A DNA stretch of 64,000 nt, from positions 87,744 through 151,743 of the forward strand of contig JAJFFH010000024.1 of NCBI GenBank assembly GCA_021776735.1, written 5' to 3'. A program made the position numbers and the translations under genes. Below, in pieces: positions 901-63,481 of the stretch. The first letter of the stretch is position 1; every line of letters starts with the position of its first letter. The stretch comes from Planctomycetota bacterium (GTDB lineage: Bacteria > Planctomycetota > PLA2). The notes below the pieces were generated by a model. It was not told the origin of the DNA. It worked only from the letters and a program-made list of their open reading frames with translations, and searched no databases.

Positions 901-920
901 ACATCGCCGTCCGTTTGCTG
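901..920 (+). repeat. copy of the dispersed motif (ACATCGCCGTCCGTTTGCTG; reverse complement of the core ACGGACGGCGAT at 903-914)
   Basis: Exact 12-mer plus the shared GCAAAC flank. Begins 1 nt after the ICMT stop, in the convergent intergenic region before the trkH end. Confidence 0.8.
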
Positions 921-1095
921 TTGGCTCTTTTCCTTCTCCGGGCCCCTCTGTGATTGTCTTCCTGACACGGATCACGTCGCGGTCATGCGCGGGACACGCG
1001 CGCGTGGCATCAGCAAGCGCTACGTCTACATGGGCGTCGGTCGGGAACGTTTACGATTCGGCGAGGTCGGGATCGGGGTCCGCTTCGCGGACGGG

Positions 1096-2568
1096 CTAGT
1101 CGCGCCAGGAGATCGTGCGTACGACCTCGGGGTGGAGGAGCACGAGCACGGTCATGACTTCCAGGCGGCCGATCCACATGTTCAAGAAGAACAGGAGTTT
1201 GCTGGCGGTGTGGAGATCGCCGAAGGATTCCATCGGGCCGAGTGCGCCGAAGCCGGGGCCGATGTTGCCCAGGGTTGCGATCGAGCCCGAGAAGCCGACG
1301 GCCATGTCGCCCTCGATAACGCTGACGGCGACCGCGACGATCGCGAAGATGACGAGGTAGGCGACGAAGAAACTCACGATCTGTCGAATCGTGTCGTTTT
1401 GGAGTGGACGACCGCCGACGCGTACGACCTTGAAGGCGCGGGGGTGGACCGAGCGCAGCACTTCGCGGGAGAGGAACTTCGCCATCACGATGTGGCGGAT
1501 GATTTTGGGGCCGCCGCCGGCCGATCCGGCGCAGCCTCCGGCGAACATCAGCGCAGCGAGGATCGCGAGCGCGGACGCGGACCAGAAATTGAAGTCCTCG
1601 CTGGCGTAGCCGGTCGTCGTGACGATGCTGAGCGATTGGAACAGGCCGTGGCGCACGGACGCCTCGAAACCGTGGCCGGGGCTTCCGGCGATCACCACCG
1701 CGAGGCACAGGCCCGCGAAGATCGTGACCGCCGCATAGACGCGGAACTCCGTGTCGCGCCGAAGCGCACGCGGGCGCTTGAGGGCGCGGTATTGCAGGGT
1801 GAAGCTCGCGCCGGCAATGAACATGAACACGATCACGATCCACTGCGACGCGGCCGAATAGCCGTCGAGGGAGCGGCCGTGCGGACTGAACCCACCGGCG
1901 GCCAGCGTCGTGAACGCGTGGCAGACCGCATCGAACACGGACATGCCCCCCACCGTTGAAAGCAGCAGCGCCTGCACGGCGGTCAGCGCGATGTAGAGGC
2001 GCCAGAGCGCGGCCGCCGTCTGGCGGATGCGCGGGGTCAGCGACTCCTCCTCCGGGCCGGGCGCCTCGGAGAAAAACATCTGCCGGCCGGCGACGGCGAG
2101 CGCGGGCAAGACGGCGACGAACAAGACGATGATGCCCATGCCGCCGAGCCACTGCGTCATGGCGCGCCAAAACAGGAGGCCGTGGCTGAGCACGCTCTGT
2201 CGGTCGGCGCCGTTGAAGTGTTCCGAGGAAAAGATCGTCGAGCCCGTCGTCGTGAAACCCGACATGGTCTCGAACAGCGCGTCGATCCACGAGAATCCCT
2301 GCTGCATGTATGGCACCGCGCCAAACGTGCTTACGAGCAGCCACGACGCGGCGACGACCGCCATCGCTTCGACGCGCGCCAGCGTCGGGGCGCGACCGCT
2401 CCGCGCAAGCGCACGACCGAGGACGTAGGCGGCGACGGCGGTGATCGCGAATCCGGCGGCGCCGTCCGGCCGGCCGTAGTACAGATCGACCGCGGCCGGA
2501 ACGAGTAGGAGCACCGCAAACGGGCGCAGGATCTGCCCGAGCACGCGAAGAACGCGAGCGCACCTCAC
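1096..2568 (-). CDS. trkH: TrkH/KtrB-family potassium uptake membrane protein
   Basis: 490 aa polytopic protein with repeated GFTTTG / TTTGYASEDF selectivity-filter-like motifs and SEHFNGADRQS. 4-bp overlap with the upstream trkA. Confidence 0.9.
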   Translation of the reverse strand: MRCARVLRVLGQILRPFAVLLLVPAAVDLYYGRPDGAAGFAITAVAAYVLGRALARSGRAPTLARVEAMAVVAASWLLVSTFGAVPYMQQGFSWIDALFETMSGFTTTGSTIFSSEHFNGADRQSVLSHGLLFWRAMTQWLGGMGIIVLFVAVLPALAVAGRQMFFSEAPGPEEESLTPRIRQTAAALWRLYIALTAVQALLLSTVGGMSVFDAVCHAFTTLAAGGFSPHGRSLDGYSAASQWIVIVFMFIAGASFTLQYRALKRPRALRRDTEFRVYAAVTIFAGLCLAVVIAGSPGHGFEASVRHGLFQSLSIVTTTGYASEDFNFWSASALAILAALMFAGGCAGSAGGGPKIIRHIVMAKFLSREVLRSVHPRAFKVVRVGGRPLQNDTIRQIVSFFVAYLVIFAIVAVAVSVIEGDMAVGFSGSIATLGNIGPGFGALGPMESFGDLHTASKLLFFLNMWIGRLEVMTVLVLLHPEVVRTISWRD

Positions 2569-4092: not shown

Positions 4093-4112
4093 ACATCGCC
4101 GTCCGTTTGCTG
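4093..4112 (+). repeat. copy of the dispersed motif (ACATCGCCGTCCGTTTGCTG; core at 4095-4106)
   Basis: Exact 12-mer with the GCAAAC flank, in the intergenic region upstream of the trkA start, beside a G7 tract. Confidence 0.8.
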
Positions 4113-5571: not shown

Positions 5572-6427
5572 CCGGCATGGCCGGGCTGACCGGACCCGCG
5601 TAGGTGTTGAGAAACAGCGCGCCTTCCGCGCGTTCGCGCAAGAGCACGGCCAGCGTCTTCGCGGTGTAGGTCGGCTCGACAAGAAGCCCCGCCGCGCGCG
5701 CGGCTTCCATGGCGGCGTCCACCGCGGGCGTGGTCTCGCCGTACGCGCCTTCGCCCTTCACGACGCGCAGCCGGACGGTCTTGCGCGGCCGGGGCAAGTC
5801 GGGATTGCAGCGCCGCGCCAGACGCGCCGCCCGCCGCGCGCGCCCCTTCAAGCCCGGCGGCGACGGCGCCACGCGCACGGCCACGATCTCGGTCGTCACG
5901 CCGCGCAACATGAAGCCCGCCAGGAGCCCGCTCACGGTCGTTCCGCTACCGAGCGGCACATAGATGCGCTCCGGGACGGGATCGATCTCGAACGCGGCCT
6001 CGACATAGCCGAATGCGCCGCGCGCGGACGCCCCACCGGGCGGGATGATGCGCGTCCCGGGCCTCCAAAGCATCGCCGTCCGTAGCAGGGCGCTCAAAAT
6101 TCCGCCGACCTCCACGATGCGCGCGGCGACTTTGGGAAGCGCGCGGTACGCACCCGTCGGTTGCCCCCGGCTGATGAGGATCACGTCGCAGGGTGCCGGC
6201 GCGTGCACGGCGGTGGCGTAGGCGTGGTGGGCGGAGAGAGTGCTATAGGTCAAGAAGCGTACGGACGGCGATGCCATCAGGAACTGGAGGGCACGCGGCT
6301 TGTTGCCGGCGTAGTTCGGGCAGCAGCGATCCTCGCGCTTGACAAGGAAATCGAGGCCGGCGACCGTCACGGGCTCGACGGGGGTCGGCCGGACGCCGAG
6401 GTCGAGCCGAGCCGCGTTCAGGCGCAT
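5537..6427 (-). CDS. PLP-dependent enzyme of the ACC deaminase / D-cysteine desulfhydrase family
   Basis: Carved from the C-terminal 296 aa of the 930-aa shadow ORF: ...[18 protein letters not shown]... and the Gly-rich PLP loop [17 protein letters not shown]. Start ATG at 6427 (alternative 6442). Converges on and overlaps the queF 3-prime end. Confidence 0.7.
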
Positions 6428-6506
6428 CCCGTTCTGGCGCATTCGGGGGAGGATACACCCGGGTACACTGCCCGCCGTGCGTGTCACGATCGACGATCCG
6501 CCGACG

Positions 6507-9077: not shown

Positions 9078-9615
9078 GACCAGCCCCAACCCAAGCGGGC
9101 GCTCCGTCGTCGCCAAGCCGGCGCGCCACGTCGAACACGTCGAGGTAACCCTTGAGGTGCAAGCCGTGGCGCGCCAATTGAATCAACGGCACGACGAGCG
9201 TGAACCACCAACGCCGGCGCACGTACGCCCCGAACGGATCGACGTGTGCCTGCACCCGGTCGTCATCCCACCCCGCAAAGTGCTTGAGATGCAGCGACGG
9301 TCCGAACGTCCGCTCGCTCGCCTCCCACCGACCGTTTTTCTCGCTAAGCCGGAAAGGCTTGCCGCGCCGAAGCGCGTCCGCGCGAAGGCGGGACGGCGAT
9401 GTTTGCAGGGCAGCGCGCAGCGCCTCGACGTCCGTGCAGCGAAAGTGGAGCTTGCCGGGCTCTGAACCGTCCTCGCGCGCGACAAAACGCCAGAGATCGC
9501 CCATCTTGTACCGGCAATTGAGCACCGTCTGGCGCATCTCGGGCGTCGCGCCCAAAAACCACGCGTCGTCGTAGCCGGGCCGGGCAAGATCGGAGAGGTT
9601 GTGAATAAGTCCCAT
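9052..9615 (-). CDS. hypothetical protein
   Basis: 187 aa ORF with reasonable composition and no motif I recognise. Overlaps the VOC gene 3-prime end by 26 bp (convergent). Confidence 0.4.
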   Translation of the reverse strand: MGLIHNLSDLARPGYDDAWFLGATPEMRQTVLNCRYKMGDLWRFVAREDGSEPGKLHFRCTDVEALRAALQTSPSRLRADALRRGKPFRLSEKNGRWEASERTFGPSLHLKHFAGWDDDRVQAHVDPFGAYVRRRWWFTLVVPLIQLARHGLHLKGYLDVFDVARRLGDDGAPAWVGAGPSTSSKRP

Positions 9616-11830: not shown

Positions 11831-11850
11831 AATCGCCGTCCGTACGCTGC
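11831..11850 (+). repeat. copy of the dispersed motif (AATCGCCGTCCGTACGCTGC; core at 11832-11843; GCGTAC-flank subfamily)
   Basis: Exact 12-mer in the divergent region between the saccharopine DH start and the Sel1 gene start (11883). Confidence 0.8.
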
Positions 11851-12737: not shown

Positions 12738-12760
12738 ACCGCCGTCCGAATCCCGAAGGG

Positions 12761-12780
12761 AGCAAACGGACGGCGATGTT
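12761..12780 (+). repeat. copy of the dispersed motif (AGCAAACGGACGGCGATGTT; core at 12766-12777)
   Basis: Exact 12-mer with the GCAAAC flank, between the convergent 3-prime ends of the Sel1 gene and the 12802..13635 gene. Flanked by short complementary runs (CCCGAA ... TTCGGG). Confidence 0.8.
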
Positions 12781-13760: not shown

Positions 13761-13780
13761 AGCATCGCCGTCCGTACGCT
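13761..13780 (+). repeat. copy of the dispersed motif (AGCATCGCCGTCCGTACGCT; core at 13764-13775)
   Basis: Exact 12-mer, GCGTAC-flank subfamily. About 130 bp upstream of the 12802..13635 gene start. Flanked by AAAGC ... GCTTT. Confidence 0.8.
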
Positions 13781-15960: not shown

Positions 15961-16512
15961 TTACTGCTCGCTCTCGATCACGGGCCTCAGCCGGTGCGCG
16001 AGAATCTCGCGCGCGTGCCGAAACCGCTGTTTCGCCGTGCGTTCCGAGACATCGAGCGCCTCGGCCACCTTGGCGTAGGTCAGTTCGTGGTGTGCGCGCA
16101 ACAAAAACGTCGCGCGCAAGTCCGGCGGCAGCCGCTCCACCTCGGCGCGCACGCGCGTGTCGAGGTCGCGGGCCGCCACCGCGTCGACTGCATCGCCGTC
16201 CGTCAGCTCCCCGTCGAGGCGTTCGACAGGACGACGCCGGCGCAACCGATCCCGAAACAGATTCGTCGCCACGCGAAAAAGCCACGCTCCCAGGGTTCCG
16301 TTGTGAACGTGGAGCCGGTGTTGGTGACGCAGAAAACGTACGAAGGTCTCTTGGCAAAGTTCGTCCGCTGCCCACGGATCGCCGGTCAGGCGGGCCAGGT
16401 AGCCGTGGATTTTTCGTCCATACTCCTGGTAGATCGCTTCGAATCCGTCCGCCATGCACCCCGTAAGACGCGGGGGACGCGTGATTCGGGAAGGGAATCC
16501 CGGCGGATTCAT
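15961..16512 (-). CDS. RNA polymerase ECF-type sigma factor (sigma-70 family, regions 2 and 4)
   Basis: FEAIYQEYGRKIHGYLARLTGD...DELCQETFVRFLRHQ (region 2) and LTYAKVAEALDVSERTAKQRFRHAREIL (region 4 HTH). The start at 16512 gives an ATGA overlap with the upstream gene; alternative start MADGF at 16455. Confidence 0.85.
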   Translation of the reverse strand: MNPPGFPSRITRPPRLTGCMADGFEAIYQEYGRKIHGYLARLTGDPWAADELCQETFVRFLRHQHRLHVHNGTLGAWLFRVATNLFRDRLRRRRPVERLDGELTDGDAVDAVAARDLDTRVRAEVERLPPDLRATFLLRAHHELTYAKVAEALDVSERTAKQRFRHAREILAHRLRPVIESEQ

Positions 16513-17725: not shown

Positions 17726-17744
17726 GACGGACGGCGATGTTTGC
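17726..17744 (+). repeat. copy of the dispersed motif (GACGGACGGCGATGTTTGC; core at 17727-17738)
   Basis: Exact 12-mer at the left edge of a 760-bp ORF-free region. Confidence 0.8.
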
Positions 17745-23000: not shown

Positions 23001-24086
23001 ATGACGAGTTCTGTCGCCGTGCCGCCCCCCGCCGATACCGCCCAGCCGGACTGCGAGTTCCGGCGCCTTGACCCCACGGATCCGGCGTGGCAGGCCTTGC
23101 TCACAACCCACCCCCTCGCGGAGTCGGTGCGGCCGATGTGGGAAGAGGTCGCCGGGTGGGAAGCGATTCGGATCGGGAAGTTCACGGACGGCGATGTCCA
23201 GGCCGGAATCCAGTTCCACACCCGCGGCCTCCCCGGCCTGCCGTGGCGCCTCGCACGCATCACACAACTCCTGCCCACACCGATCGCGGACCGATCGCAG
23301 GCCTGCACGGCAGCGCTCCTGGCCGAAGCCGAACGCGTTGCGTGGGAACGCCGGGTCGTGGAAATCGAGTTCCGGGCGCACATCCCGGTGCCCGACATGA
23401 TCGACGCCCACGGGTTCCACTCGGGCATCGGCAAAGGGCTCGACCAGGCCGGTTACACGCAGGTTCCGGAGTTCAACGGCACCTACTTCGTCGATATTGA
23501 CCGCAGCGACGAGGAGCTCCTCCTCTCGTTCAAGAAAACCACGCGCAGCGAGGTCCGCCGCCCGAAGAAGAAGGGTTGCCGAATCGAAAGGGGCGACGAA
23601 TCCCTGCTTGAAACCCTGTTCGACGGGTACGCCGCTATGGGCGCGCGCAAGGGTCTCGGCGAAACAACGTTGCCGCGCCCGTTCGTGGTGGATCACATGA
23701 AACCGCTGGTACAGGCGGGCCATGTGCACCTGTACTACGCTGCGTACGGCGACGACATCAGCGACATCGCCCTGATCGATGCCCTCGGCACACCGATCAA
23801 CATGCAGTCGGTACGCCTGACCGCCAGCCTGTCGAACAAGTACCCGTCAGCCGCGCGCCGCCTCCACTACGTCATCATGACGATGCTCCGCGACGAGGGC
23901 AAAAAGCTGTACGACCTCGGCGGCAGCCCGGCGCCGGTCCCGATCCCCGGCCATCCGAACTACGGCGTCTGGCAGCACAAGTACCACTACAAGGGCACCT
24001 ACGTCCCGTACATCCCCCGCTTTCGCAAGGCACGAAGCCGCTTCGGTGCCAACCTCGCCCGAACCGTCCGCTTCGTCCGCGACTGA
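23001..24086 (+). CDS. FemAB-family (GNAT-fold aminoacyl-transferase-like) protein, copy 1
   Basis: 361 aa with the FemAB-like C-terminal half (...LHYVIMTMLRDEGKKLYDLGG...). Proteins of this kind are described next to exosortase/PEP-CTERM polysaccharide loci. Contains an in-frame copy of the dispersed 12-mer (FTDGDVQ). Confidence 0.65.
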   Translation: MTSSVAVPPPADTAQPDCEFRRLDPTDPAWQALLTTHPLAESVRPMWEEVAGWEAIRIGKFTDGDVQAGIQFHTRGLPGLPWRLARITQLLPTPIADRSQACTAALLAEAERVAWERRVVEIEFRAHIPVPDMIDAHGFHSGIGKGLDQAGYTQVPEFNGTYFVDIDRSDEELLLSFKKTTRSEVRRPKKKGCRIERGDESLLETLFDGYAAMGARKGLGETTLPRPFVVDHMKPLVQAGHVHLYYAAYGDDISDIALIDALGTPINMQSVRLTASLSNKYPSAARRLHYVIMTMLRDEGKKLYDLGGSPAPVPIPGHPNYGVWQHKYHYKGTYVPYIPRFRKARSRFGANLARTVRFVRD

Positions 24087-24140: not shown

Positions 24141-24381
24141 CCACGGACGGCGATGTGTGCCCGAACCGCACATCCGCGCGGCAGGATTGCCTGGCACCAA
24201 TCAGGCTCGCAGTGCGGCAGGATTACATGGCACCGTCCCGGCTGACAGTGCAGCACGATTACGTGGCACCAATCAAGGCCGGGTGGTCGGCGTGCGTAAC
24301 CGATTGTCGCTAAACGGCTTGCGACGAATTCGCGCCGCTGCGGGCGGCGTCCCCGGGACATCGCCGTCCGTTTGCTTGCTG
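24141..24381 (+). repeat. composite intergenic repeat element A: inverted copies of the dispersed motif (24143-24154 and 24360-24371) flanking three 36-bp direct repeats (24178-24285) that each contain TGGCACC
   Basis: Repeat units GCGGCAGGATTGCCTGGCACCAATCAGGCTCGCAGT / GCGGCAGGATTACATGGCACCGTCCCGGCTGACAGT / GCAGCACGATTACGTGGCACCAATCAAGGCCGGGTG. TGGCAC at 24192, 24228 and 24264, exactly 36 bp apart. Confidence 0.75.
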
Positions 24382-26435: not shown

Positions 26436-26650
26436 AGACGGACGGCGATGCCTCCGGCTCCGGGGTCAGTCGAACGCGTCCGTCGGCGTCGAGGCCGCCG
26501 AGTACGGGTGCCAGGTAATCCTGCTGCCATCACCGGCCGGCAACAGCAGGATCCCCTGGCACCGTACCGGCAGCACGGCAGCAGGATCCCCTGGCACCGT
26601 ACCTCTGGCACCGTACCTCGTGGCACCGTACCTCGCCGTCCGTACGCTCC
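26436..26650 (+). repeat. composite intergenic repeat element B: inverted copies of the dispersed motif (26438-26449 and variant 26633-26644) flanking an imperfect inverted repeat (26506-26528 / 26546-26568) and a 15-bp x3 tandem array of TGGCACCGTACCTC(G)
   Basis: GGGTGCCAGGTAATCCTGCTGCC ... CAGCAGGATCCCCTGGCACCGTACC. TGGCAC at 26557, 26592, 26606 and 26621. The unit GCAGCAGGATNNCCTGGCACC is shared with element A. Confidence 0.75.
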
Positions 26651-37937: not shown

Positions 37938-38921
37938 ATGTCCATCGAAATCGACACGTCGTACTCGTCTTCATCCTCCTCGGGCTCCTCGCCGTCTGGG
38001 TCCTCCGGCTCCTCCGGCTCCTCCGGATCCCCCGGTCCGGGCGCGTCGATGCCCGGTGCACCGCCGATCCCGGCACATGCACTCACGATCGACGTCGAGG
38101 ACTGGTATCACGTCGAAAACCTGACCCCGGTCTGCCCGCCCGACCGCTGGGACAGCTACGAGGCCCGCCTGCCGGCCAACCTCGACCGCATGCTGGATCT
38201 TTTCGACGAAGCGGGCGTCAAGACGACGTGCTTCGTGCTGGGCCGCGCCGCGGAGCGCCACCCGGAAATCGTCGGCAAAATCGTCGCCCGCGGCCACGAA
38301 CTCGCATGCCACGGCTGGTCGCACGAGCTGATCTACCGCCAGACACCCGCGGAGTTCCGCGAGGAGACGATCCGCGCCAAGAAATTCCTCGAGGACCTCG
38401 CAGGCATCGCCGTCCTTGGCTACCGCGCATCGACCTTCTCCATCGTCGAGAAGACCCTGTGGGCGCTCGACATCCTGGCTGAGGCGGGGTTTGAATACGA
38501 CTCGTCAATCGCTCCGTTGCACCACGATCGGTATGGCATCCCGGACTCGCCGAAGCAGCCTCATCGAAGGGAGCTGACGGACGGCGATATCTTGGAGTTT
38601 CCGGTCTGCACGATGCATGGATTGCGCCGCACCTTCCCGCTCGGCGGTGGGTTTTTCCGGTTGTTCCCGGTGTCGTGGGCGCGCAAGAGCATCGAAGAGC
38701 ACGCCGCGCGCGGACAGAGCGCGATGGTGTATCTGCACCCGTGGGAGATCGATCCCGGCCAGCCGCGCGTAGACGGCCTCAAGTGGAGCCACCGCTTTCG
38801 GCATTACGCGCGGCTCGGCGCCACGATGGGCAAGCTCCGGCGCCTTCTGAAGGGCCACCGCTGGGACACGATGGCCTCGATTCTGGGGCTCGCGGGAGAC
38901 GCCGCCGAGGGCAACGCCTAA
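37938..38921 (+). CDS. polysaccharide deacetylase family protein of the subfamily described at exosortase (PEP-CTERM) loci
   Basis: LTIDVEDWYHVENL..., CHGWSHELIYRQT..., LGYRASTF..., YLHPWEIDP. Ser/Gly-rich N-terminus encoded by GGCTCCTCC repeats. Contains an in-frame copy of the 12-mer (LTDGDIL). Start uncertain (37938 or 38047). Confidence 0.8.
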   Translation: MSIEIDTSYSSSSSSGSSPSGSSGSSGSSGSPGPGASMPGAPPIPAHALTIDVEDWYHVENLTPVCPPDRWDSYEARLPANLDRMLDLFDEAGVKTTCFVLGRAAERHPEIVGKIVARGHELACHGWSHELIYRQTPAEFREETIRAKKFLEDLAGIAVLGYRASTFSIVEKTLWALDILAEAGFEYDSSIAPLHHDRYGIPDSPKQPHRRELTDGDILEFPVCTMHGLRRTFPLGGGFFRLFPVSWARKSIEEHAARGQSAMVYLHPWEIDPGQPRVDGLKWSHRFRHYARLGATMGKLRRLLKGHRWDTMASILGLAGDAAEGNA

Positions 38922-40054: not shown

Positions 40055-41748
40055 CGCGGGCGCGCGGGCAACTCGGTCGGTCGCCAGTAGGCCGCGCCCT
40101 TGACCCAGGCCAGGTTCAGCGCGAAGAAAGACCGCCCTGGACCAAGATCGACCACGAGAATCCTCGCGGCGCGCTTCCGAGAGAACGTCTTGTGCCGCGC
40201 CGCAAGGAGTCTTCTTGAAACCGGAGACGCGTCGGCCGCACAGACAACAATCCGGATCTTCGACCGATCCCGGATCAGGTCCAATACGGTCGCGCCCCAC
40301 GAACGAAGTTCGCCCACCCTCGCCCGTTCGGGCGGTTCGAAGTGGCCGCGCATTTCCACGGGCGCGGCCGTTTGGAGCAGGCCATGCAGATGTTTGGCCC
40401 ATCCCCGCCCGGTCCAACCGCCCCGGTCCACGTCCATGCGCGGCGAAGGATCGACCAGAAACAGGATCGGGTCTTCCGACGGCGTCAGAAAGTCGGCGAA
40501 GAGATCCTCTGCCGCGGGCCCGCTGAGATCGTCCGGGAGCATGGGTGGCGTGCCGAGCTGTGCGAGATGGACCGCCAGTCGCCCTCCCGGCGGCCTCTTG
40601 CCCACACCATCCAGAATCAGGAGCGCCTTTTGGGGGTCGGCCTTCAGGCCCCCGCGCCGGACAAACGCCCGGAACTTCTCCCACCGCACGTAGCGGATCG
40701 ACCATTCGAGCCCGCTTGCACTCCGGCGACGCAGCGCGCGCTCCACATCATAGCGCCCGAGATAGGCGATCGCTGCCACACCCAAGAGGTAGCCGATCCG
40801 CCCGTAGCGGTAAAAAACCCACGGCGGCGCGTCCACCCAACGGGCCAACGTGTCGTTCGGGAACACGAAGCCGTACGCCTCCCAGTGGGACAGATAGCGG
40901 TTCAGCAGAGCCAGGAGCGGCCCCATCCGCGCCAGTGGAAAGCCGATATCGCGATCGCCCTTCCGGCCGAGCGCCAGGTATTTGGCCAGCCCCTCGCCGA
41001 CCAGCCGCGAGTCGGTGAACCGCTCGTTGAGATAGAACGTGACCGCGTGCGCGAGCTCGTGTTTCAGGGTGCGGCGTCGGTAGCGCGGCGGAGACTTGGT
41101 GCGAACGACAATGAACCGGTCGTCCAGAAAGTAGGTGCCAGCGGCACGCGCGTTCTTGAACCCGCGAAAGACCTCTGCGCCCATTCGGGGGGTTGCGAGC
41201 ACGTCGATTCGATGCGGGAGGCGGCCGCGCGCTACAGAGAGCCAAAGATCGACGAGACGTTCCCCCTCGGTGCGATCGTACTCGTGATAGCGCCCGTCGA
41301 GCGTCCAGAAGCGTAGGTGATTACCACCGCTGACCTGTTTGGGAAGCGTGTACAGGTAGAGCCGGGACACGCTGGCCTTCCACGGCCAGCGCTCATCGAA
41401 CCGATCCGCAGCCACGAAGTGCTCCGACAGCGCGTTTAGCTCTTCGGGACCCTTGGCACCCCACACGTACGGGTTGAGGTTTAGGCGACGCACGAACGGA
41501 GTCGGGCCGTCCAGCGGGGGAAGCTCGGGACGGCGATGCTTTTGAACATCGGTGCCGGGCGCGGTATCGAGGTCGGGTGCGGGGTCGGGGTCGCGACTGG
41601 GATCCTTGGGCCTGTCCTGCTCCGCCGGGTACGCCACGATTTCGCCCTGCCCGCGTGATCCGGACCCGTTGATGTCGCGCGTGAGCAGCCAGATCAGACC
41701 GATCGCCACCAAGATGACCGCAACGAGAATGAACCGGTCGGCCCTCAT
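40051..41748 (-). CDS. membrane-anchored protein with HExxH zinc-metallopeptidase-like motif
   Basis: N-terminal TM MRADRFILVAVILVAIGLIWLL, Pro/Asp-rich linker, then ...TLKHELAHAVTFYLNERF... No further family assignment from the sequence. Confidence 0.5.
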   Translation of the reverse strand: MRADRFILVAVILVAIGLIWLLTRDINGSGSRGQGEIVAYPAEQDRPKDPSRDPDPAPDLDTAPGTDVQKHRRPELPPLDGPTPFVRRLNLNPYVWGAKGPEELNALSEHFVAADRFDERWPWKASVSRLYLYTLPKQVSGGNHLRFWTLDGRYHEYDRTEGERLVDLWLSVARGRLPHRIDVLATPRMGAEVFRGFKNARAAGTYFLDDRFIVVRTKSPPRYRRRTLKHELAHAVTFYLNERFTDSRLVGEGLAKYLALGRKGDRDIGFPLARMGPLLALLNRYLSHWEAYGFVFPNDTLARWVDAPPWVFYRYGRIGYLLGVAAIAYLGRYDVERALRRRSASGLEWSIRYVRWEKFRAFVRRGGLKADPQKALLILDGVGKRPPGGRLAVHLAQLGTPPMLPDDLSGPAAEDLFADFLTPSEDPILFLVDPSPRMDVDRGGWTGRGWAKHLHGLLQTAAPVEMRGHFEPPERARVGELRSWGATVLDLIRDRSKIRIVVCAADASPVSRRLLAARHKTFSRKRAARILVVDLGPGRSFFALNLAWVKGAAYWRPTELPARPR

Positions 41749-43650: not shown

Positions 43651-44534
43651 GCGCGGCGCGACGCGGCATCATCCTGGCTGGGGGCTCCGGCACACGGCTG
43701 CACCCGATCACCAAGGCGACGAGCAAGCAGCTCCTGCCGGTGTACGACAAGCCGATGGTGTACTACCCGCTGTCCACGTTGATGCTCGCCGGGATTCGCG
43801 AGATCCTCGTAATCACCACCCCGCGCGACAGCGAGGCGTTTCAAACGCTGCTCGGCGACGGCGCGGAATGGGGCCTTGAGCTGCGCTACGCGACGCAGCC
43901 CAACCCCGGCGGACTCGCGCAGGCGTTCTTGATCGACGAGACGTTCGTCGAGGGTCGTTCGAGCGCGCTGGTCCTCGGCGACAACATCTTCTTCGGACAC
44001 GGGCTGGCGAAACGACTCCAAGCCGCCAATGCGCACGACGGCGGTGCGACGGTGTTCGGCTACTACGTCAAGGATCCGCAGCGGTACGGCGTCGTCGAAC
44101 TGGACCGCGACGGCAACGCGCTCTCGATCGAAGAGAAACCCGAAAGCCCGAAGTCGCACTACGCCGTCACAGGCCTCTACTTCTACGACGACACGGTGCT
44201 CGACATCGCCCGCAACCTGAAGCCGAGCGCGCGCGGTGAACTCGAAATCACCGACGTCAACGCGCGTTACCTCGAACGCGGCGCACTGCGCGTCGAAACG
44301 CTGGGCCGCGGCATGGCATGGCTCGACACCGGCACCGTCGATTCGCTGCTGCAGGCGACGAACTTCATCGAGACCATCGAAAGCCGGCAGGGACTAAAAA
44401 TCGCCTGCCCGGAAGAGATCGCGTGGCGGATGAACTACATCGACGATCGCGGACTGGAAACGCTCGCCGACAAACTCAAGAAGACGGTGTACGGCGAGTA
44501 CCTGAGAGAAATCCTCAGGGACGGACGGCGATGA
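43647..44534 (+). CDS. rfbA: glucose-1-phosphate thymidylyltransferase
   Basis: [50 protein letters not shown]... GTG start overlapping the rfbB stop. The last codons (...RDGRR*) lie inside a copy of the 12-mer. Confidence 0.9.
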
Positions 44535-45079: not shown

Positions 45080-45102
45080 GACATCGCCGTCCGTTTGCTG
45101 CC
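45080..45102 (+). repeat. copy of the dispersed motif (GACATCGCCGTCCGTTTGCTGCC; core at 45083-45094)
   Basis: Exact 12-mer with the GCAAAC flank, 13 bp after the rfbC stop. Confidence 0.8.
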
Positions 45103-47390: not shown

Positions 47391-48542
47391 ATGCGCTTTC
47401 CGCAAGTCGTCCCCGAATACCCGGTGTGGACCCCGTCCCGCGCAGCCGCCCATCCGCAATGGCGTGGACTGGCTGAGCGAACGGAAGCGGACGGACGGCG
47501 ATGTTCCTTTGCGCGCACGGGGATCTTTCTCGGTTTGAAGGCGCTCGGACTCCAGTCCGGCGACGAAGTCCTTTTGCCCGCGTGGCACTGCGCCGCACTG
47601 GTCGTCCCGGTCGCCAAGGCCGGTTTCACCCCGATTTTCTACGATCTGGACGAAAACGGCCGCCTCGACCCGGCCCGCCTGGAGGCTGCCTGGACCTCCA
47701 AGACCCGCGCGGTCCTCGCGGTTCATCTCTTTGGGTTCGCCGAGGACCTCGCGCCGGTCCGGGCGCTGTGCGACGCACGCAACGGCTTCCTGGTCGAGGA
47801 CGCCACGCAGGCGTACTACCTGGCCCAGGACCCGGTCGGCGATCTCGTTTTGGTCAGTCCGTACAAATTTCTCCCCGCCGCCGAGGGCGGCGAATACTGG
47901 CTCAAGGACGGCTTCGGGCCGGCCCCCGCCCCCCCCGAAACCACTCTCACTGGCACCCTCAAGGCGTTCCTCAAGGACGCCTACCACATTGGCGAGGCAT
48001 CGTTCGCCGCGCGCCGTGGAGGGCTGTGGCAGTGGCTTTTCGGCGCCGTGATCCGGCTGCGCTACCTCGGCCGGCCCTCGCCGTTTCAGGTACACAGCAA
48101 GGCCCCTGCGAATGCGGTCCCGCCCACCGCGGATGACCTACCCACGGCGGACGACCTGATGGAAAAGTGGCACGTGGCGCCGCGTGCGCCCGCGAAGTGG
48201 TCGGCACGGCTGGTCCGACGTGCGCCGCCGGGTGCGGGTGCCGAGGAGCGTCGGGCGAACTACGCGTGGTTTGCGGAGCGGCTGGAGGGCGTATCGGCGC
48301 TGCCTGACGACGTGGTGCCGTACATGCTGCCGCTGTTTCGCGACGAGCCTGGACCGGTGCTCGCCCGCCTGCGGCGCGCGTCGATCCAGTTTCAGCGCTA
48401 CGGCCTGCCGCCTTGGCCGGAAATGGACTTCGCGGCCTTCCCGAATGCCGCCCGGCTGGCCCACACCGGGTTCCAGATTCCGATCCACCAGAACGTGGAC
48501 GCTGCGGCCCGGGAGCGGATTCTGGGCGCTCTGAACGGCTGA
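47391..48542 (+). CDS. DegT/DnrJ/EryC1/StrS-family PLP-dependent aminotransferase (second, divergent copy)
   Basis: ...GDEVLLPAWHCAALVVPV..., ...GFLVEDATQAY... Start uncertain: 47391 gives 383 aa, and the N-terminal codons contain a copy of the 12-mer (ADGRRC). Confidence 0.65.
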   Translation: MRFPQVVPEYPVWTPSRAAAHPQWRGLAERTEADGRRCSFARTGIFLGLKALGLQSGDEVLLPAWHCAALVVPVAKAGFTPIFYDLDENGRLDPARLEAAWTSKTRAVLAVHLFGFAEDLAPVRALCDARNGFLVEDATQAYYLAQDPVGDLVLVSPYKFLPAAEGGEYWLKDGFGPAPAPPETTLTGTLKAFLKDAYHIGEASFAARRGGLWQWLFGAVIRLRYLGRPSPFQVHSKAPANAVPPTADDLPTADDLMEKWHVAPRAPAKWSARLVRRAPPGAGAEERRANYAWFAERLEGVSALPDDVVPYMLPLFRDEPGPVLARLRRASIQFQRYGLPPWPEMDFAAFPNAARLAHTGFQIPIHQNVDAAARERILGALNG

Positions 48543-50245: not shown

Positions 50246-51508
50246 ATGCGAATCAGACTCATTCTCGTGTTGATATCGGCTGTAGTGCTCCCGGCATGCC
50301 AGCGCGCCGGAAGTGACGCCCCTCGCTTGATCGCCCGCTCGCAAGTCGTGCTCCTGAGCCCGCCCACTGAATTCATCACGGGCTCGCTGGACGGTTGGCT
50401 GTTCTCGGCACAGGGGGGGGCCACAACGATTGAGTTTTCGTATACGCCCGGAGGTCAGGAAGATACCGATCTCGTCGTCCCGGGCGTGACGCTCCTGCTC
50501 GCACAGTCCGACAGTCACGATGGCGTGCGGTATCTCTTGGTTGGTACGCTTGACGCGGCTGAACGGTACTCACTCCATCGCTACCACGACACGTCGGGCG
50601 ACGGGGCGCCCGACGCGGGCACGCAGTCCCTTCTGTTCACTTCGGTCGAGCCGATGTACGTGACCTATCTCTCGCGCACCGCCGCCGGTACGACGTATCT
50701 CCTTGACAAGCGCTGTCAAGACATACTGGTCGCGACGGACAGCGACGGCGACGCCTGGCCGGACCAGATCGCGGCGGCGCCGTTCGCCCGATCCGCGGAC
50801 CACGAAACGCTCCTCGATGCCGGATTCATCCGGATGCTGTCGAACGGCAACCTGCTGGCCATGATCAACGCGCGAATGGAGCGCTTTCATTCGCCCCACG
50901 ACATCTTCAGGGACACGGACGGCGACCTGGTGGCGGATGTCCATGTCGTCGGTCCCGAGGGGGACAAGCCGATTTACTTCTCCGCCTTTTTGTCGGTCGG
51001 ACAGGACGAACTCACCGTCGCCGCCCAGGTGGGCAACGTCGTCGAGGTCTGGGAACTCGACTCGTCCGGCGCGACGAACGTTCTGCTTGGTTCCGCCACG
51101 GTGGCTTCGAACGGACGTGCCACTATCTCACTCACGCGGACACTCGCCGCGGGCGACGAGATCGGCATCAAGTACGCATCGTCAACCGAGATCGCGATCA
51201 CGAACACCGTGATCGCGAAGATCCCTCAAGTGCTGGACGTCGAGCCGAAGACGGCCCTGACCAATCAGAATTCCACGATAGTGCTCACGGGCCAGGACTT
51301 TACAACGACGATGACCGTCACGTTGCGGGAAATGGACGGCACGACCCACACCCTCACGGTTCAGTACATCGACACAACGACGGTCAACGTCACCGTCCCC
51401 AGCCTCACCACCGAGGGATCGGTAGCAATCTACGCCCACGAACCCGGTCAAGATCTGGAAGAATTCGGAGTCCGCGGACGAACGATCCAAGTCTGCAACC
51501 CGCAGTAA
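50246..51508 (+). CDS. lipoprotein with C-terminal Ig-like (IPT/TIG-like) beta domain
   Basis: MRIRLILVLISAVVLPAC lipobox. Thr/Val-rich beta-strand C-terminus (...TIVLTGQDFTTTMTVTL...). Confidence 0.5.
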   Translation: MRIRLILVLISAVVLPACQRAGSDAPRLIARSQVVLLSPPTEFITGSLDGWLFSAQGGATTIEFSYTPGGQEDTDLVVPGVTLLLAQSDSHDGVRYLLVGTLDAAERYSLHRYHDTSGDGAPDAGTQSLLFTSVEPMYVTYLSRTAAGTTYLLDKRCQDILVATDSDGDAWPDQIAAAPFARSADHETLLDAGFIRMLSNGNLLAMINARMERFHSPHDIFRDTDGDLVADVHVVGPEGDKPIYFSAFLSVGQDELTVAAQVGNVVEVWELDSSGATNVLLGSATVASNGRATISLTRTLAAGDEIGIKYASSTEIAITNTVIAKIPQVLDVEPKTALTNQNSTIVLTGQDFTTTMTVTLREMDGTTHTLTVQYIDTTTVNVTVPSLTTEGSVAIYAHEPGQDLEEFGVRGRTIQVCNPQ

Positions 51509-52726: not shown

Positions 52727-52855
52727 GGTAGAGCCAGACCGGCCCGCCCCCAAGACCAGCGCAGGGCATCTTGCGGACAGCAAACGGGCCTGCCCGCGCC
52801 GAAGCGCCAAGTGAAGGCGGGACGGCGATGCCTTCGGTGGTCGGGGGCGGGCTCG

Positions 52856-54052: not shown

Positions 54053-54077
54053 GGACATCGCCGTCCGTACGCTCTCT
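54053..54077 (+). repeat. copy of the dispersed motif (GGGACATCGCCGTCCGTACGCTCTC; core at 54057-54068)
   Basis: Exact 12-mer, GCGTAC-flank subfamily, between the lipoprotein gene start and the TPR gene end. Confidence 0.8.
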
Positions 54078-54083
54078 CCGTCC

Positions 54084-59138: not shown

Positions 59139-60413
59139 ATGTCGTCTCAGTACGTCCTTGTTGTGTCCTCGGGCAAGCTGCGGCGGGAAGTTGCCGTCGG
59201 AGAAGAGCCGCTCGTCGCGGGGCGCGGCCCCACGTCGAATCTGCGGCTGCCCGACGACTACTGCTCCCGCGAGCACGCCCGGTTCGTGAGCCGGGGGAGC
59301 GATCTGTACGTCGAGGATGTCGGCGCCAGGAACGGCGTGTTCGTGAACGACGAGCGGGTACTCCTCGACAAAAAGCTGACGGACGGCGATGAAGTCCGCC
59401 TTGGACGGACCCAGATCATTGTCCGCCGCGCGGCCGCGCCCCCGCCCCCCGACCCGACTACCGAGGGCGATCTGTCCGACACCGCGACCAAGGATCTCGG
59501 GCCGGAGGGCATTCAGTTCGTCGATCCGGCCGTGGAACTCGGGTTTACCCTGACGCGCCTCGTCGCGGTCTCGGGCATGGGCCTCCTGTTCGAGGCCAAG
59601 GACGTCAAATCCGGGCACAAGGTCGCGTTCAAGATCCTGCGGCCCGACCGCGCGACCGAAGCCAACGTGGCCCGCGCCGTCGAAGAGGCCAAGTCGCTGT
59701 CGAGCATCCACCACGAAAACATCGTGCGGATCCTTTCGACGGGGCGCATGCGCAACGGCGAGTCGTTCCTCGTCATGAAGTACGTCGATGGTCCGACCGC
59801 GACGCAACTCGGCAAGGCCGGCCGCCTCTGGATTCCGGAGGCGCTCAAGATCGCTTCGGACACCTGTTCTGCGCTCCACGCGGTGCACACGCGCGGCATG
59901 GTCCACCGCGACGTCAAGCCGAGCAACGTCATGATCGAGGAAGCGACGCTGCGGATCGTCCTGATCGACTTCTCGCTCGCACTGACGGAAGCCGGCGGCC
60001 TCGCCAGCGCGCCTGCCGGGACGATCATTTTTTGTGCGCCCGAGCAGGTGCAGCCACGCGCCGGAGACGACGCGATGCAGCCGGTGGTCGATGTCTACGG
60101 ACTCGGCGGTACGCTGTACTTCATGCTGACCGGCTCGCACCCGTTCCGCGGCCAGAGCACGATGGAAATCCAGGAAAAGAAACTCAGCGCGCCGCTGCCC
60201 ACGGTCAAGACCCGGCTGAAAGGGCGAGCGATCCCCGAGCTCGACGGGATCATCCACCACTGCATGCAGCCGGATCCCGCGAACCGTCCGCCGAGCATGA
60301 TGGATGTGAAAAAGGCCATCGACCGCGCCCGCCGGCGCTACCCCGCACCGAAGTTCACCGACGCGAACAAGTCGGCCACGCCGTCTCCCGTGCGGGGCAG
60401 GGCGAAGCGTTGA
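59139..60413 (+). CDS. FHA-domain-containing Ser/Thr protein kinase
   Basis: FHA (YVLVVSSGKLRREVAVGEEPLVAGRGPTSNLRL...SREHARFVS...NGVFVNDERV) then Hanks kinase (VAFKIL, HRDVKPSNVM, IDFSLA, APE). The tool's start at 59022 is also possible. Confidence 0.8.
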   Translation: MSSQYVLVVSSGKLRREVAVGEEPLVAGRGPTSNLRLPDDYCSREHARFVSRGSDLYVEDVGARNGVFVNDERVLLDKKLTDGDEVRLGRTQIIVRRAAAPPPPDPTTEGDLSDTATKDLGPEGIQFVDPAVELGFTLTRLVAVSGMGLLFEAKDVKSGHKVAFKILRPDRATEANVARAVEEAKSLSSIHHENIVRILSTGRMRNGESFLVMKYVDGPTATQLGKAGRLWIPEALKIASDTCSALHAVHTRGMVHRDVKPSNVMIEEATLRIVLIDFSLALTEAGGLASAPAGTIIFCAPEQVQPRAGDDAMQPVVDVYGLGGTLYFMLTGSHPFRGQSTMEIQEKKLSAPLPTVKTRLKGRAIPELDGIIHHCMQPDPANRPPSMMDVKKAIDRARRRYPAPKFTDANKSATPSPVRGRAKR

Positions 60414-61808: not shown

Positions 61809-62219
61809 CTATACGAAGGTCGCGGCGTAGAGCCAGACGCCGGTTGCGACCGTGGCGCAGAACAGGGCGATCAGGATTCGGCCGCGGCGGCGGTGCGCGT
61901 CGCGCTCGTCGAAAACCCGCTTGCCGCGGGCGATCTGGTAGGTCCAGAGCAGCGTGGCCGGGATCGCGAAGGTGAGGTGAATCGCGAGGGCCAGCGCGTC
62001 CAGGGGCGGCGGCGTGGCCTCCAAACGGACCTGAATCTCGAAGGCGACAACGGCAAACAGGAAGACGACGTAGCACGCCGTCATGACCCGCGCGTGCCTC
62101 TTGACCTGACCGCGTCGCACCAGCCGCACGGCCCATAGGAGCACGGGCAGCATCACGACCAAGACGACCAGGAACAGATCCACGAAGAACCCGGCCTCGG
62201 TACCGAAAAAGCCGCTCAC
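61809..62219 (-). CDS. DUF420-like small integral membrane protein
   Basis: 136 aa, 4 TM. 4-bp overlap with the thiI start. Confidence 0.55.
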   Translation of the reverse strand: MSGFFGTEAGFFVDLFLVVLVVMLPVLLWAVRLVRRGQVKRHARVMTACYVVFLFAVVAFEIQVRLEATPPPLDALALAIHLTFAIPATLLWTYQIARGKRVFDERDAHRRRGRILIALFCATVATGVWLYAATFV

Positions 62220-63373
62220 AGGATCAAGTCCTCGCTTGTGGCGGCCGCGACAGCCTCTTCGACCAACGCCGCGACGTCGAGATCGGCCTCAGCGACATCG
62301 CCGTCCGTACGCGTTGTCTTGGTGGCAGGCCGATTCGGCACAAAGAGCTGACAGCAGTCCTGATCGGGCCGAATCGAGATGTCGAAGGTCCCGATTCGTC
62401 GGGCTACGTCGATGATTTCCCGCTTGTCGGTGCCGATCAGGGGCCGGAGGACCGGAATCTGGGCGACCGCATCGACCGTGGAGAGGTTTTCGAGGGTCTG
62501 GGAGGCCACCTGGCCGAGGCTTTCGCCGGTCACGAGGGCGCCGCAGCGCCGGCCGCGGGCGATCCGCTCGGCGATTCTGAGCATGAAGCGCCGGTACAGG
62601 ACGACGCGAAGGGCTTCCGGGCAGTGGAGCCGGATTTCTCGCTGGATCGGAGCGAGCGGAACCATGTGGAGGCGGGTCCGGTACTGCCAGCGGGTCAGCG
62701 TCTCGGCCAGATCGCGGGCTTTTTCCTGCGTCGTGCGGTCCACGAGCGGGAAGCTGTGGAAGTGGACCAGATCGACGTGGCAGCCCCGGTTGATCATGCG
62801 CCACGCGGCCACGGGCGAGTCGATCCCGCCACTCATGAGCGCCGCGACGCGCCCCCCGGTCCCGACCGGCAGACCGCCGGGACCCTCGACCCTGTCCAGC
62901 CCCACGAGCACCTCGTCCTTGAGTACGGAGACGTGATAGTCGTACGCGGCGCCCTTGAGTTGCACGCCACGACCGGTCTCCCGCACCACGACGGCACCGA
63001 TATCACGGTCCGCCTCCATCGACAGCAACGGAAACGTTTTGTCGACCCGCCGCGTGGAGATGCGAAACGTGCCCGGCGGCCGGGCGGCCAAATCCGCCGA
63101 GATAGACCGCCCCACGGCCTCCATATCGCGCGGCAGCCGCTCGAGCCGCAGCACGTACGAAACCCCGCATACCTGCGCCAGCCGGCGCTGGATCACGGCC
63201 GGGTCGACGTCCGCCTCGATCGTGACGAGCACGCGGCTCATGTACGACCGGGTCTCACACGGCCCGATTTCGGCCAGCGCCCGCCGTGCATTGTTCCGCA
63301 GCGCCCGCTCAAAGCGGCTCCGGTTGCCCCCTTTGAGCGCCAGCTCGTGAAAATGAAGCCCGAATGTCGCCAC
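62216..63373 (-). CDS. thiI: tRNA 4-thiouridine(8) synthase ThiI (THUMP + PP-loop ATPase, no rhodanese domain)
   Basis: ...HFHELALKGGNRSRFE..., PP-loop LMSGGIDSPVAAW. C-terminal region contains an in-frame copy of the 12-mer (KTTRTDGDVAE). Confidence 0.85.
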   Translation of the reverse strand: MATFGLHFHELALKGGNRSRFERALRNNARRALAEIGPCETRSYMSRVLVTIEADVDPAVIQRRLAQVCGVSYVLRLERLPRDMEAVGRSISADLAARPPGTFRISTRRVDKTFPLLSMEADRDIGAVVVRETGRGVQLKGAAYDYHVSVLKDEVLVGLDRVEGPGGLPVGTGGRVAALMSGGIDSPVAAWRMINRGCHVDLVHFHSFPLVDRTTQEKARDLAETLTRWQYRTRLHMVPLAPIQREIRLHCPEALRVVLYRRFMLRIAERIARGRRCGALVTGESLGQVASQTLENLSTVDAVAQIPVLRPLIGTDKREIIDVARRIGTFDISIRPDQDCCQLFVPNRPATKTTRTDGDVAEADLDVAALVEEAVAAATSEDLIL

Positions 63374-63454
63374 GAACCGCCCATGGGAACGACGAAAGGC
63401 CCCGCGCGCAAGGATTCGAAGGCTATTCGAGGGAGACTTCCAAAAACGTCAGGA

Positions 63455-63481
63455 ACGGACGGCGATGTTTCCGATCTGGCC
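63455..63481 (+). repeat. copy of the dispersed motif (ACGGACGGCGATGTTTCC...; core at 63455-63466)
   Basis: Exact 12-mer in the divergent region between the thiI start and the 63520 gene, followed by duplicated GTTGACCCC. Confidence 0.8.

Follow-up and report, generated by a model that had tools for sequence, protein, structure and literature searches.

A sharply conserved and highly repeated 12-mer in a Planctomycetota genome, a candidate self-DNA tag

The DNA analysed here, which we call the window, is a stretch of 64,000 nucleotides (nt) from a Planctomycetota bacterium (NCBI GenBank assembly GCA_021776735.1, contig JAJFFH010000024.1, positions 87,744 to 151,743). It carries an exopolysaccharide gene cluster, genes for kinases, transporters and a sigma factor, and, scattered through genes and spacers, 23 exact copies of the 12-mer ACGGACGGCGAT, 13 on the forward and 10 on the reverse strand by exact count. 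Hyper-abundant short words are rare in genomes. The understood cases are the DNA uptake sequences (DUS) and the uptake signal sequences (USS), which are central to restricting genetic exchange to an organism's own kind. A preliminary description of the window had placed the 12-mer far above chance, and this was borne out, as dinucleotide-preserving shuffles of the window gave a mean of 0.05 copies and a maximum of 2, an excess of about 400-fold. The density is one copy per 2.8 kb. ACGGACGGCGAT is GC-rich, in a genome of 66% GC, and it is the sole strongly over-represented 10-12-mer of the window. Only four copies with one mismatch were found in the window, which makes the word unusually sharp. 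At least 21 copies had been placed previously; all nine reverse-strand positions were right, two forward-strand positions are corrected here (28624 to 28629 and 32254 to 32214), and the copies at 6261(+) and 16192(-) had been missed. Four near-copies reported at the same time are real, with some coordinates shifted: those at 26632(-) and 50915(+) have one mismatch, and those at 41526(+) and 52818(+) have two. In 4.5 kb of DNA past the window edge, there was no copy of ACGGACGGCGAT.

The gene map came from a self-trained codon model and was checked against Pfam and public gene calls. Copies had been described both in genes and between them, and we count 10 in coding and 13 in non-coding DNA. 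Because the latter makes up about 11% of the window, the word is about ten times as dense there as in coding DNA. Seven copies occupy spacers between tandem genes, five of them within the first 20% counted from the upstream stop codon (P=0.005), and one of these five (45083) is antisense to both neighbours. Divergent spacers hold the copies at 11832, 47491 and 63455. The strand split of 13:10 shows no replication-strand bias (P=0.68), a point that the preliminary description had raised, while the cumulative GC skew of the window falls monotonically; a polar word of the kind of Chi or the FtsK-orienting polar sequences (KOPS) is therefore excluded. The coefficient of variation of the spacing is 0.74 (P=0.09) and the largest gap has P=0.06, so that evenness is suggested without being significant.

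All copies were aligned in register and the information at each position was measured. The consensus unit is AGC-[AA/GT/TG]-ACGGACGGCGAT-GT, which is linear and bounded. AGC occupies positions -5 to -3 in 16-19 of the 23 copies, G follows at +1 in 20 of 23 and T at +2 in 16 of 23, and then comes a pyrimidine-rich tail. The dinucleotide that separates AGC from the word is also non-random, with AA in 5 of 15 copies (P=5e-5), GT in four and TG in three. Because the flanking AGC, the spacer dinucleotide and GT are all non-random, we take the unit to be about 19-21 nt long. The exact 19-mer AGCAAACGGACGGCGATGT is common to five copies, and the antisense intergenic copies 903, 24360 and 45083 carry it complete. 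Information is at background beyond about -9 and +5 of ACGGACGGCGAT, so the copies do not all lie within one longer repeat, an outcome that the preliminary description had named as refuting. No conserved body, no inverted or direct terminal repeat and no target-site duplication was found around the 23 copies, and this rules out an element like a miniature inverted-repeat transposable element (MITE). The end of a small mobile element, the second of three explanations offered in the preliminary description, is likewise rejected, since a body and terminal structure are lacking and several copies were born of substitutions.

The word is asymmetric and not self-complementary. The 23 copies with 35-nt flanks have no common fold (z-scores from -1.7 to +1.7), and none of the covariance models of Rfam 15 matches the word, the sole match in the window being a cyclic di-GMP (c-di-GMP)-I riboswitch. 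Flanks such as GGAC/GTCC, GGAA/TTCC and AAAGC/GCTTT had suggested a hairpin with the word in its loop. This candidate was rejected, because copies pair with their own flanks over 3.77 bp and with swapped flanks over 3.68 bp (P=0.42); the apparent pairing arises because the 5' flank is purine-rich and the 3' flank pyrimidine-rich. The only hairpin is formed by the copy at 12766 and its degenerate inverted partner, with a 9-bp stem CGGACGGCG, an 18-nt loop and a T-rich tail. A second pair, two convergent degenerate copies 23 nt apart (CGGGACGGCGAT and ACGGACGTCGAG, at 9389-9435), lies in a stretch of weak coding potential (9078-9818) and may be a decayed inverted pair.

The coding copies reveal the level at which the word is favoured. 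Eight are sense and two antisense, and six of the ten are read in the T-D-G-D frame (ACG-GAC-GGC-GAT), in an extracytoplasmic function (ECF) sigma factor, a FemAB-like protein, a glycosyltransferase, a polysaccharide deacetylase, an FHA domain and ThiI. The window has seven T-D-G-D peptides, six encoded by the exact word and the seventh by the one-mismatch copy at 50915. D-G-D tripeptides end in the rare codon GAT in all six motif copies and in none of the 13 others. The sole I-A-V-R peptide of the window is encoded by the reverse complement of ACGGACGGCGAT. When synonymous codons were shuffled and the proteins kept (2000 trials), the mean was 0.47 copies and the maximum 4, compared with 10 observed. 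T-D-G-D itself is in about 20-fold excess, with seven peptides against about 0.3 expected by a rough estimate from typical amino-acid frequencies, and the force must therefore also have altered proteins. Our data show that the force behind the word acts on nucleotides and has changed proteins. In ortholog alignments, E-G-G-A-S in a variable loop of the deacetylase gave way to T-D-G-D in the window, and V-D-G-D in the sigma factor did likewise. In the FHA domain, a native L-x-D-G-D motif was recruited as the word, and the copy in a glycosyltransferase loop sits in a 5-residue insertion absent from two relatives (contigs L078 and L079). These alignments show that several copies came about by base changes in existing codons that left the length unchanged.

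The closest named homologs of the window proteins are in uncultured Planctomycetota metagenome-assembled genomes and are 60-67% identical. Logan contigs of SRR15505515 encode identical proteins and match the window at 100%. A sister species is represented by contig L077, whose asparagine synthase is 84% identical, and by L234 and L235 (ThiI 74%), which are 99.8% identical to each other. The sister contigs align collinearly with the window, with 75-84% of nucleotides identical, and the sample consists of 33 kb on independently assembled contigs from two other metagenomes, the Joint Genome Institute sets 3300022719 and 3300023283. The 12-mer is rare in L077, L078 and L079, and it had seemed unique to the lineage of the window; counting the 9-mer core GACGGCGAT overturned this. 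The core occurs 9 times in L077 (shuffle expectation 0.43) and 13 times in L234 (0.78), or 22 times in 33 kb against about 1.2 expected, an excess of 17-20-fold per locus. Contigs of relatives at about 67% identity have two copies (L078) and one copy (L079), with about 0.7 expected, and three copies (L236), for which about 0.7 is taken by analogy. Similarly, GGACGGCGAT occurs seven times in L234 against 0.17 expected and is absent from L078, L079 and L236. The search of relatives for the same word, which the preliminary description had proposed, thus succeeded for the core in the sister species and failed in distant relatives. The 5' extension of the core is heterogeneous in the sister species (ATGAC five times, GGGAC four times, CGGAC three times), with flanks of low information. 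For the window species, 23-28 of its 31 core copies carry A-C-G at -3 to -1, a nearly fixed extension, and four copies of CGGGACGGCGAT are retained, one of the commoner forms of the sister species. The sharing of the core and the difference in its extension are both seen across the two species sampled.

For four window copies (16192, 59379, 62297 and 63455), the orthologous site of the sister species also carries the core. Among the 13 core sites that could be aligned, a small sample, four are shared, one is present only in the window and eight only in the sister species. With 4 of 13 shared, sites persist above the roughly 10% that a neutral 9-mer would show at this divergence, and they also turn over. 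The FHA site of the outgroup L236 has D-G-D encoded by the ordinary codons GAC-GGG-GAC, which indicates that the word is a derived trait of a small clade. At 63455, the alignment of window and sister species starts exactly at the word and runs on into a conserved sigma-70-like promoter downstream, placing the copy at about -53 to -64. This copy is not part of the adjacent mRNA, because it lies upstream of the promoter. The -10 hexamer TATCGT ends 7 nt before the first ATG (63520) of an ABC-transporter substrate-binding gene, so the mRNA may be leaderless or have a very short leader.

Table 1. Positions of the word, its variants and other features of the window. L-numbers are contigs of the sister species (L077, L234) and of more distant relatives (L078, L079, L236).
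Feature	Position	Strand	Location	Details
Exact copy	903..914	-	Intergenic, convergent genes	2 nt past stop of PEMT gene 457-900(+); full 19-mer AGCAAACGGACGGCGATGT
Exact copy	4095..4106	-	Intergenic	35 nt past stop of gene 4142-5242(-), upstream of trkA 2565-3929(-); full 19-mer
Exact copy	6072..6083	-	Within pyridoxal phosphate (PLP)-dependent enzyme gene 5537-6442(-)	Sense, R-T-A-M
Exact copy	6261..6272	+	Within PLP-dependent enzyme gene 5537-6442(-)	Antisense, S-P-S-V
Exact copy	11832..11843	-	Divergent spacer	18 nt upstream of saccharopine dehydrogenase ATG (11813)
Exact copy	12766..12777	+	Convergent genes	28 nt past stop 12737; pairs with imperfect inverted copy 12738-12749
Degenerate inverted partner of 12766, TCGGACGGCGGT	12738..12749	-		2 mismatches
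Exact copy	13764..13775	-	Spacer of tandem minus-strand genes	230 nt past stop 14006
Exact copy	16192..16203	-	Within ECF sigma-factor gene 15961-16455(-)	Sense, T-D-G-D; sister ortholog (L077) GTGGACGGCGAT, V-D-G-D
Exact copy	17727..17738	+	Non-coding	Indel junction where L077 has an extra glycosyltransferase gene
Exact copy	23184..23195	+	Within FemAB-like gene 23001-24086(+)	Sense, T-D-G-D
Exact copy	24143..24154	+	Intergenic	56 nt past stop 24086
Exact copy	24360..24371	-	Intergenic	Antisense to both neighbours; full 19-mer
Exact copy	26438..26449	+	Intergenic	33 nt past asparagine synthase stop 26404
Exact copy	28629..28640	+	Glycosyltransferase gene 27897-29120(+)	T-D-G-D; in 5-residue insertion, L078 and L079 orthologs without it
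Exact copy	32214..32225	+	Within gene 30540-33752(-)	Antisense, I-A-V-R
Exact copy	38577..38588	+	Polysaccharide deacetylase/DUF3473 gene	T-D-G-D; L079 ortholog loop E-G-G-A-S
Exact copy	44521..44532	+	3' end of rmlA	D-G-R-R-stop; following ATG (44531) is the rmlC start
Exact copy	45083..45094	-	Intergenic	15 nt past rmlC stop; antisense to both neighbours; full 19-mer
Exact copy	47491..47502	+	Between divergent DegT-type genes	At or just before 5' end of gene 47391/47535-48542(+), start codon uncertain
Exact copy	54057..54068	-	15 nt past stop of tetratricopeptide repeat (TPR) gene 54084-57827(-)	12 nt before terminator-like hairpin 54029-54045
Exact copy	59379..59390	+	FHA domain (LTDGDEVRLG) of FHA-Ser/Thr kinase gene 59022-60413(+)	T-D-G-D; sister ortholog (L234) CGGGACGGCGAT, R-D-G-D; outgroup (L236) TCGGACGGGGAC
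Exact copy	62297..62308	-	Near C-terminus of thiI 62216-63373(-)	T-D-G-D; sister ortholog (L234) CATGACGGCGAT, H-D-G-D
Exact copy	63455..63466	+	Divergent spacer, thiI / ABC-transporter operon	Intergenic; 17 nt upstream of -35 hexamer; exact 12-mer in both species, orthologous copy L234 9703(-)
One-mismatch copy ACGGACGGCGAG	26632..26643	-	Intergenic	AGCGT flank
One-mismatch copy ACGGACGGCGAC	50915..50926	+	Coding	Only T-D-G-D peptide without the exact word
Sister word CGGGACGGCGAT	9389..9400	+		Convergent with ACGGACGTCGAG 9424(-)
Sister word CGGGACGGCGAT	35056..35067	-
Sister word CGGGACGGCGAT	41526..41537	+
Sister word CGGGACGGCGAT	52818..52829	+	Intergenic
-35 hexamer TTGACC	63484-63489		Conserved sigma-70-like promoter	17-nt spacer to -10 hexamer
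-10 hexamer TATCGT	63507-63512		Conserved sigma-70-like promoter
G-rich tract GGGGGCGGGGGCG	4076-4086			9-10 nt from copy 4095
G-rich tract GGGGGCGGGGGCG	42835-42845			9-10 nt from core-like variant AATGACGGCGAT at 42856
Intrinsic terminator	17851-17888	-	After gene 18404-19153(-)	Strong, 16-bp stem
Intrinsic terminator	46009-46035	+
Intrinsic terminator	54029-54045	-
c-di-GMP-I riboswitch	33886-33978	-	Directly upstream of gene 30540-33752(-)	Rfam RF01051, 61.5 bits
Exopolysaccharide cluster	~23000-48600
FHA-Ser/Thr kinase gene pair	59022-61606	+		Two tandem overlapping genes

These data call for a directional process that acts on DNA, is blind to orientation, is strong enough to alter proteins and differs in specificity between sister species. 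Among understood processes, only the molecular drive of DNA uptake sequences has such properties. By this analogy, the mechanism that fits best is a DUS-like self-DNA tag. We hold it tentatively and short of even confidence, because the word differs from DUS in terminator residence and clade breadth and because no competence or receptor gene lies in the window. The word would then be a genome-wide self-DNA tag, made and kept exact by a directional, sequence-specific process on DNA, presumably biased DNA uptake. A surface DNA receptor, which the cells would have to possess, would prefer fragments that bear the word, and homologous recombination of the preferentially imported conspecific DNA would spread each new copy through the population (molecular drive). 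Since molecular drive would spread every new copy, copies would pile up wherever the sequence is tolerant, be it directly behind a stop codon, in a variable loop of a protein or in codons able to spell the word. Such a mechanism presupposes that the organism is transformable and that the density in these 64 kb holds genome-wide. Put more guardedly still, it is possible that this Planctomycetota clade uses sequence-specific DNA uptake, or a comparable recognition of self-DNA, with GACGGCGAT(G) as the tag and species dialects, and that the window species lengthened the tag to about 19 nt. An uptake-like sequence was the first explanation given in the preliminary description. It is still the best analogue, strengthened by the force on nucleotides, the permissive sites, the lack of polarity and the dialect-like core; residence in terminators is the part that did not hold. 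Two adjacent PilT-type T2SSE ATPase genes stand beside the syntenic region in relatives, and we count them for the uptake reading. The ATPase pair (350-362 residues) comes after the ABC-transporter operon in L234 (979-3112) and L236 (581-2693), together with a TIG-domain gene. Since this operon starts at the right end of the window, such a gene order probably also exists in the source genome just past that end.

Several observations weigh against an uptake tag. Only a narrow clade has the word family, which is missing from relatives at about 67% protein identity, and the evidence base is 64 kb of one species and 33 kb of one sister species. None of the 23 copies lies in the stem of a predicted intrinsic terminator, though the window has canonical terminators (Table 1). 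Informative copies lean towards the sense orientation, 13:4 (P=0.049). A Pfam search of the 64 kb found no competence, pilin or DNA-receptor gene, and so neither a ComP-type minor pilin nor PilQ, ComEA, ComEC or DprA. Furthermore, to our knowledge, natural transformation is not known for Planctomycetota.

The main rival is an abundant clade-specific DNA-binding protein, for example a nucleoid organiser, a gene-boundary insulator or a post-gene roadblock, with high-affinity sites kept by ordinary selection and a difference between species due to co-evolution of protein and site. The preliminary description had listed such a protein as its third explanation; we consider it rather unlikely, and it is nevertheless the alternative that survives best. 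It would account for the immateriality of orientation to transcription, for the clustering of copies at gene ends and for the conserved copy 63455 upstream of a conserved promoter. The retention of 4 of 13 sites between species, above the neutral value of about 10%, would also fit, and the cyanobacterial word HIP1 (highly iterated palindrome 1) has been argued to be selected and structural on like grounds, its sites being conserved between cyanobacterial species and its function unresolved (PMC5861425). A core with a variable extension would suit a shifting recognition surface. However, sites of proteins are normally degenerate, and here 23 copies are exact and four are one base off. An asymmetric site of about 19 nt would be unusual for a bacterial DNA-binding protein, ten copies lie within genes with changed amino acids, which would be costly for a boundary or regulatory site, and turnover is high, 9 of 13 sites being unshared with the sister species.

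Alternatively, the copies might be footprints of short templated insertion or gene conversion, in which a nuclease, a recombinase or an element linked to reverse transcriptase writes about 20 nt. This we regard as improbable. Its attraction lies in the sub-families with identical 19-21-mers, preceded by AGCAA, AGCGT or AGCTG in the proportions given above, in the coding copy within a 5-residue insertion, in the copy 17727 at an indel junction and the copies 23184, 24143 and 24360 in a segment specific to the window, and in the very small number of decayed copies. On the other hand, several copies were born of substitutions in codons that already existed, with length unchanged, and target-site duplications, terminal repeats and a conserved body are all lacking. 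Four sites also occur in the sister species and must be correspondingly old, Pfam found no transposase-like or reverse-transcriptase-like gene in the window, and no element so short is known.

It is a little less probable again that the word serves in RNA, as a linear site in coding and untranslated parts that an RNA-binding protein, small RNA or ribonuclease recognises. The sense lean and the position of several copies between stop codon and terminator (for example 54057) would agree with such a role, and the word contains ACGGA and has AUG at its end. The complete 19-mers at 903, 24360 and 45083 are antisense in spacers, however, and the cross-species copy 63455 stands upstream of the adjacent promoter. 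Shared structure (z near 0), copy-specific stems (P=0.42) and Rfam matches were all lacking, and an equal sense bias exists in known uptake sequences (PMC2346458). The conserved ending GATG had suggested a gene-start, ribosome-binding or leader-peptide signal. This was rejected, as the ATG rarely opens a long open reading frame and the peptides after it are unrelated; rmlC (44531) is one of the few exceptions. A promoter, ribosome-binding or start signal was rejected too, since copies stand anywhere from 18 to more than 300 nt away from a start and many of them lie within genes, post-stop or antisense. So was a structured RNA or terminator, for want of a common fold, an Rfam match and any copy in a terminator stem. 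Finally, a by-product of base composition, codon usage, a repeated peptide or an assembly artefact, to which the GC-rich word in a 66% GC genome and the six copies encoding the same tetrapeptide might have pointed, is effectively refuted by the dinucleotide shuffles (0.05), the synonymous shuffles (0.47 against 10), the restriction of GAT in D-G-D to motif copies, the 13 non-coding copies and the recurrence of the core in independently assembled sister contigs of two other metagenomes.

The preliminary description had stated that an uptake-like signal would be new, and this holds as far as the literature was searched. ACGGACGGCGAT was not found there, text matches being irrelevant primers and short hairpin RNAs, and neither was any uptake-type sequence outside Neisseriaceae and Pasteurellaceae. 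A scan of a genome collection with AGCNNACGGACGGCGATG gave at least 75 single chance matches in unrelated taxa among the matches listed, the pattern being insufficiently specific, and a scan of viral contigs with a 14-mer form gave single chance matches only. In a metagenome collection, AGCAAACGGACGGCGATGT was found at 33 loci, 28 from one unrelated conserved low-GC sequence and five singletons, and no motif-rich contig bearing AGCAAACGGACGGCGATGT was present in the collection scanned. The 28 loci (L080-L110) have AGCAAACGGACGGCGATGT once in each conserved sequence (38-57% GC), which recurs in one Joint Genome Institute (JGI) metagenome series; in both loci checked with Rfam a tRNA gene is nearby. 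Because this sequence is unrelated to the window organism, the match is a coincidence with an abundant conserved element.

The exopolysaccharide cluster includes genes for an asparagine synthase-type amidotransferase, a FemAB-like acyltransferase, several GT4 glycosyltransferases and two polysaccharide deacetylases (one DUF3473), together with a UDP-GlcNAc 2-epimerase, rmlD, rmlB (position inferred), rmlA, rmlC and two DegT aminotransferases. We take this gene set to resemble loci associated with exosortase and PEP-CTERM. The gene order differs among the window, L077, L078 and L079. The riboswitch of the window lies directly upstream of a PcRGLX-like gene of 1070 residues, which suggests that c-di-GMP controls a large protein of the exopolysaccharide locus that is secreted or acts on polysaccharide. 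The terminator at 17851-17888 is part of a block of 88 nt that is 93% identical to L077 4931-5017, while surrounding genes are 75-84% identical; a glycosyltransferase gene of L077 (3814-4890) next to this block is absent from the window. The pairing of the tandem, overlapping FHA-Ser/Thr kinase genes is conserved in the outgroup as well as in the sister species, and the word occurs in the FHA D-G-D motif of the first gene only. Besides the two G-rich tracts (Table 1), further C-rich tracts at 19431, 47923 and 59439 appear by their context to encode proline runs.

If the tag reading were true, uptake sequences would for the first time be known beyond two proteobacterial families, and the word would be the first genomic evidence of self-preferring natural transformation in the Planctomycetes-Verrucomicrobia-Chlamydiae (PVC) superphylum. 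An independent third system in a distant, high-GC and mostly uncultured phylum would make self-tagging a recurrent solution and no proteobacterial oddity. It would also be a young system for tracing how a tag originates and lengthens, since one of the two species has a 9-mer core and the other about 19 nt. Even if a DNA-binding protein were the mechanism, the force has been strong enough to rewrite proteins, and few non-coding signals reach so far. In addition, the word may serve as a species-level marker for binning and tracking the lineage in metagenomes.

Among known systems, the word is most like the DUS of Neisseriaceae (12-mer ATGCCGTCTGAA), a non-palindromic word of 10-12 nt in hundreds-fold excess on both strands, without polarity, at kilobase spacing. 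DUS of Neisseriaceae reportedly form dialects around a conserved core, and the window word likewise joins a conserved core to lineage-specific dialect positions. Most known DUS and USS lie between genes and in permissive regions (PMC2397512), and those within genes are biased in frame and orientation, with a sense lean (PMC2346458; bioRxiv 2025.10.24.684340). The window word similarly has most copies in intergenic or permissive places, coding copies restricted in frame and orientation, and an occasional inverted pair that forms a post-gene hairpin (here one, 12738/12766). The differences are also clear. The sequence is unrelated, the host belongs to Planctomycetota and not to Betaproteobacteria, and the density of one copy per 2.8 kb is lower than that of DUS, about one per 1.1-1.5 kb. 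About half of known DUS and USS are in intrinsic terminators (bioRxiv 2025.10.24.684340), compared with one of 23 window copies that forms a hairpin and no copy at all in the stem of a predicted terminator. The range of DUS and USS covers whole families, and the clade of the window word is much narrower, which counts against the uptake reading. DUS have a ComP-type receptor, competence genes and an uptake bias, which for the window word are putative. With the USS of Pasteurellaceae (9-mer core AAGTGCGGT) it shares an invariant core with flanks of lower information (here AGC upstream and GT with a pyrimidine tail downstream), in-gene copies in tolerated frames with over-represented peptides, and a sub-clade that has its own version. 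In H. influenzae, about two thirds of USS are said to lie in coding DNA, whereas the non-coding density of the window word is about ten times the coding density. USS have AT-rich flanks, and the window word is purine-rich on its 5' side and pyrimidine-rich on its 3' side, without residence in terminators.

Like HIP1 of cyanobacteria (GCGATCGC), which reaches 15-300 times its expectation, the word is hyper-abundant in genes and spacers, and no RNA, peptide or regulatory role has been found (PMC5861425). HIP1 differs in being an 8-bp palindrome with orphan methyltransferases and a phylum-wide distribution; the window word is asymmetric, 12-19 nt long, enriched between genes and limited to a narrow clade. 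The hexamer GGCGAT is presumably common to the window word and the extended form of HIP1. Repetitive extragenic palindromic (REP) sequences, including REPIN-RAYT systems, and MITEs are also species-specific, highly repeated, mostly intergenic and often post-gene. REPs, however, are imperfect-palindrome hairpins and strictly extragenic, and the window word has no hairpin and 10 of 23 copies in genes; MITEs have terminal inverted repeats, target duplications and a body of more than 50 bp, and the window word has no conserved body. Chi, KOPS and the architecture-imparting sequences (AIMS) resemble it in being over-represented in genes and spacers at kilobase spacing and in acting on DNA, but they are 5-8-mers in few-fold excess with a leading-strand skew, unlike a word of at least 12 nt in about 400-fold excess with a strand split of 13:10. 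The window word is a genuine, strongly non-random word with species dialects, and it is a member of the small set of hyper-abundant genomic words that includes DUS, USS and HIP1, with an unrelated sequence, in a new phylum and with a different anatomy.

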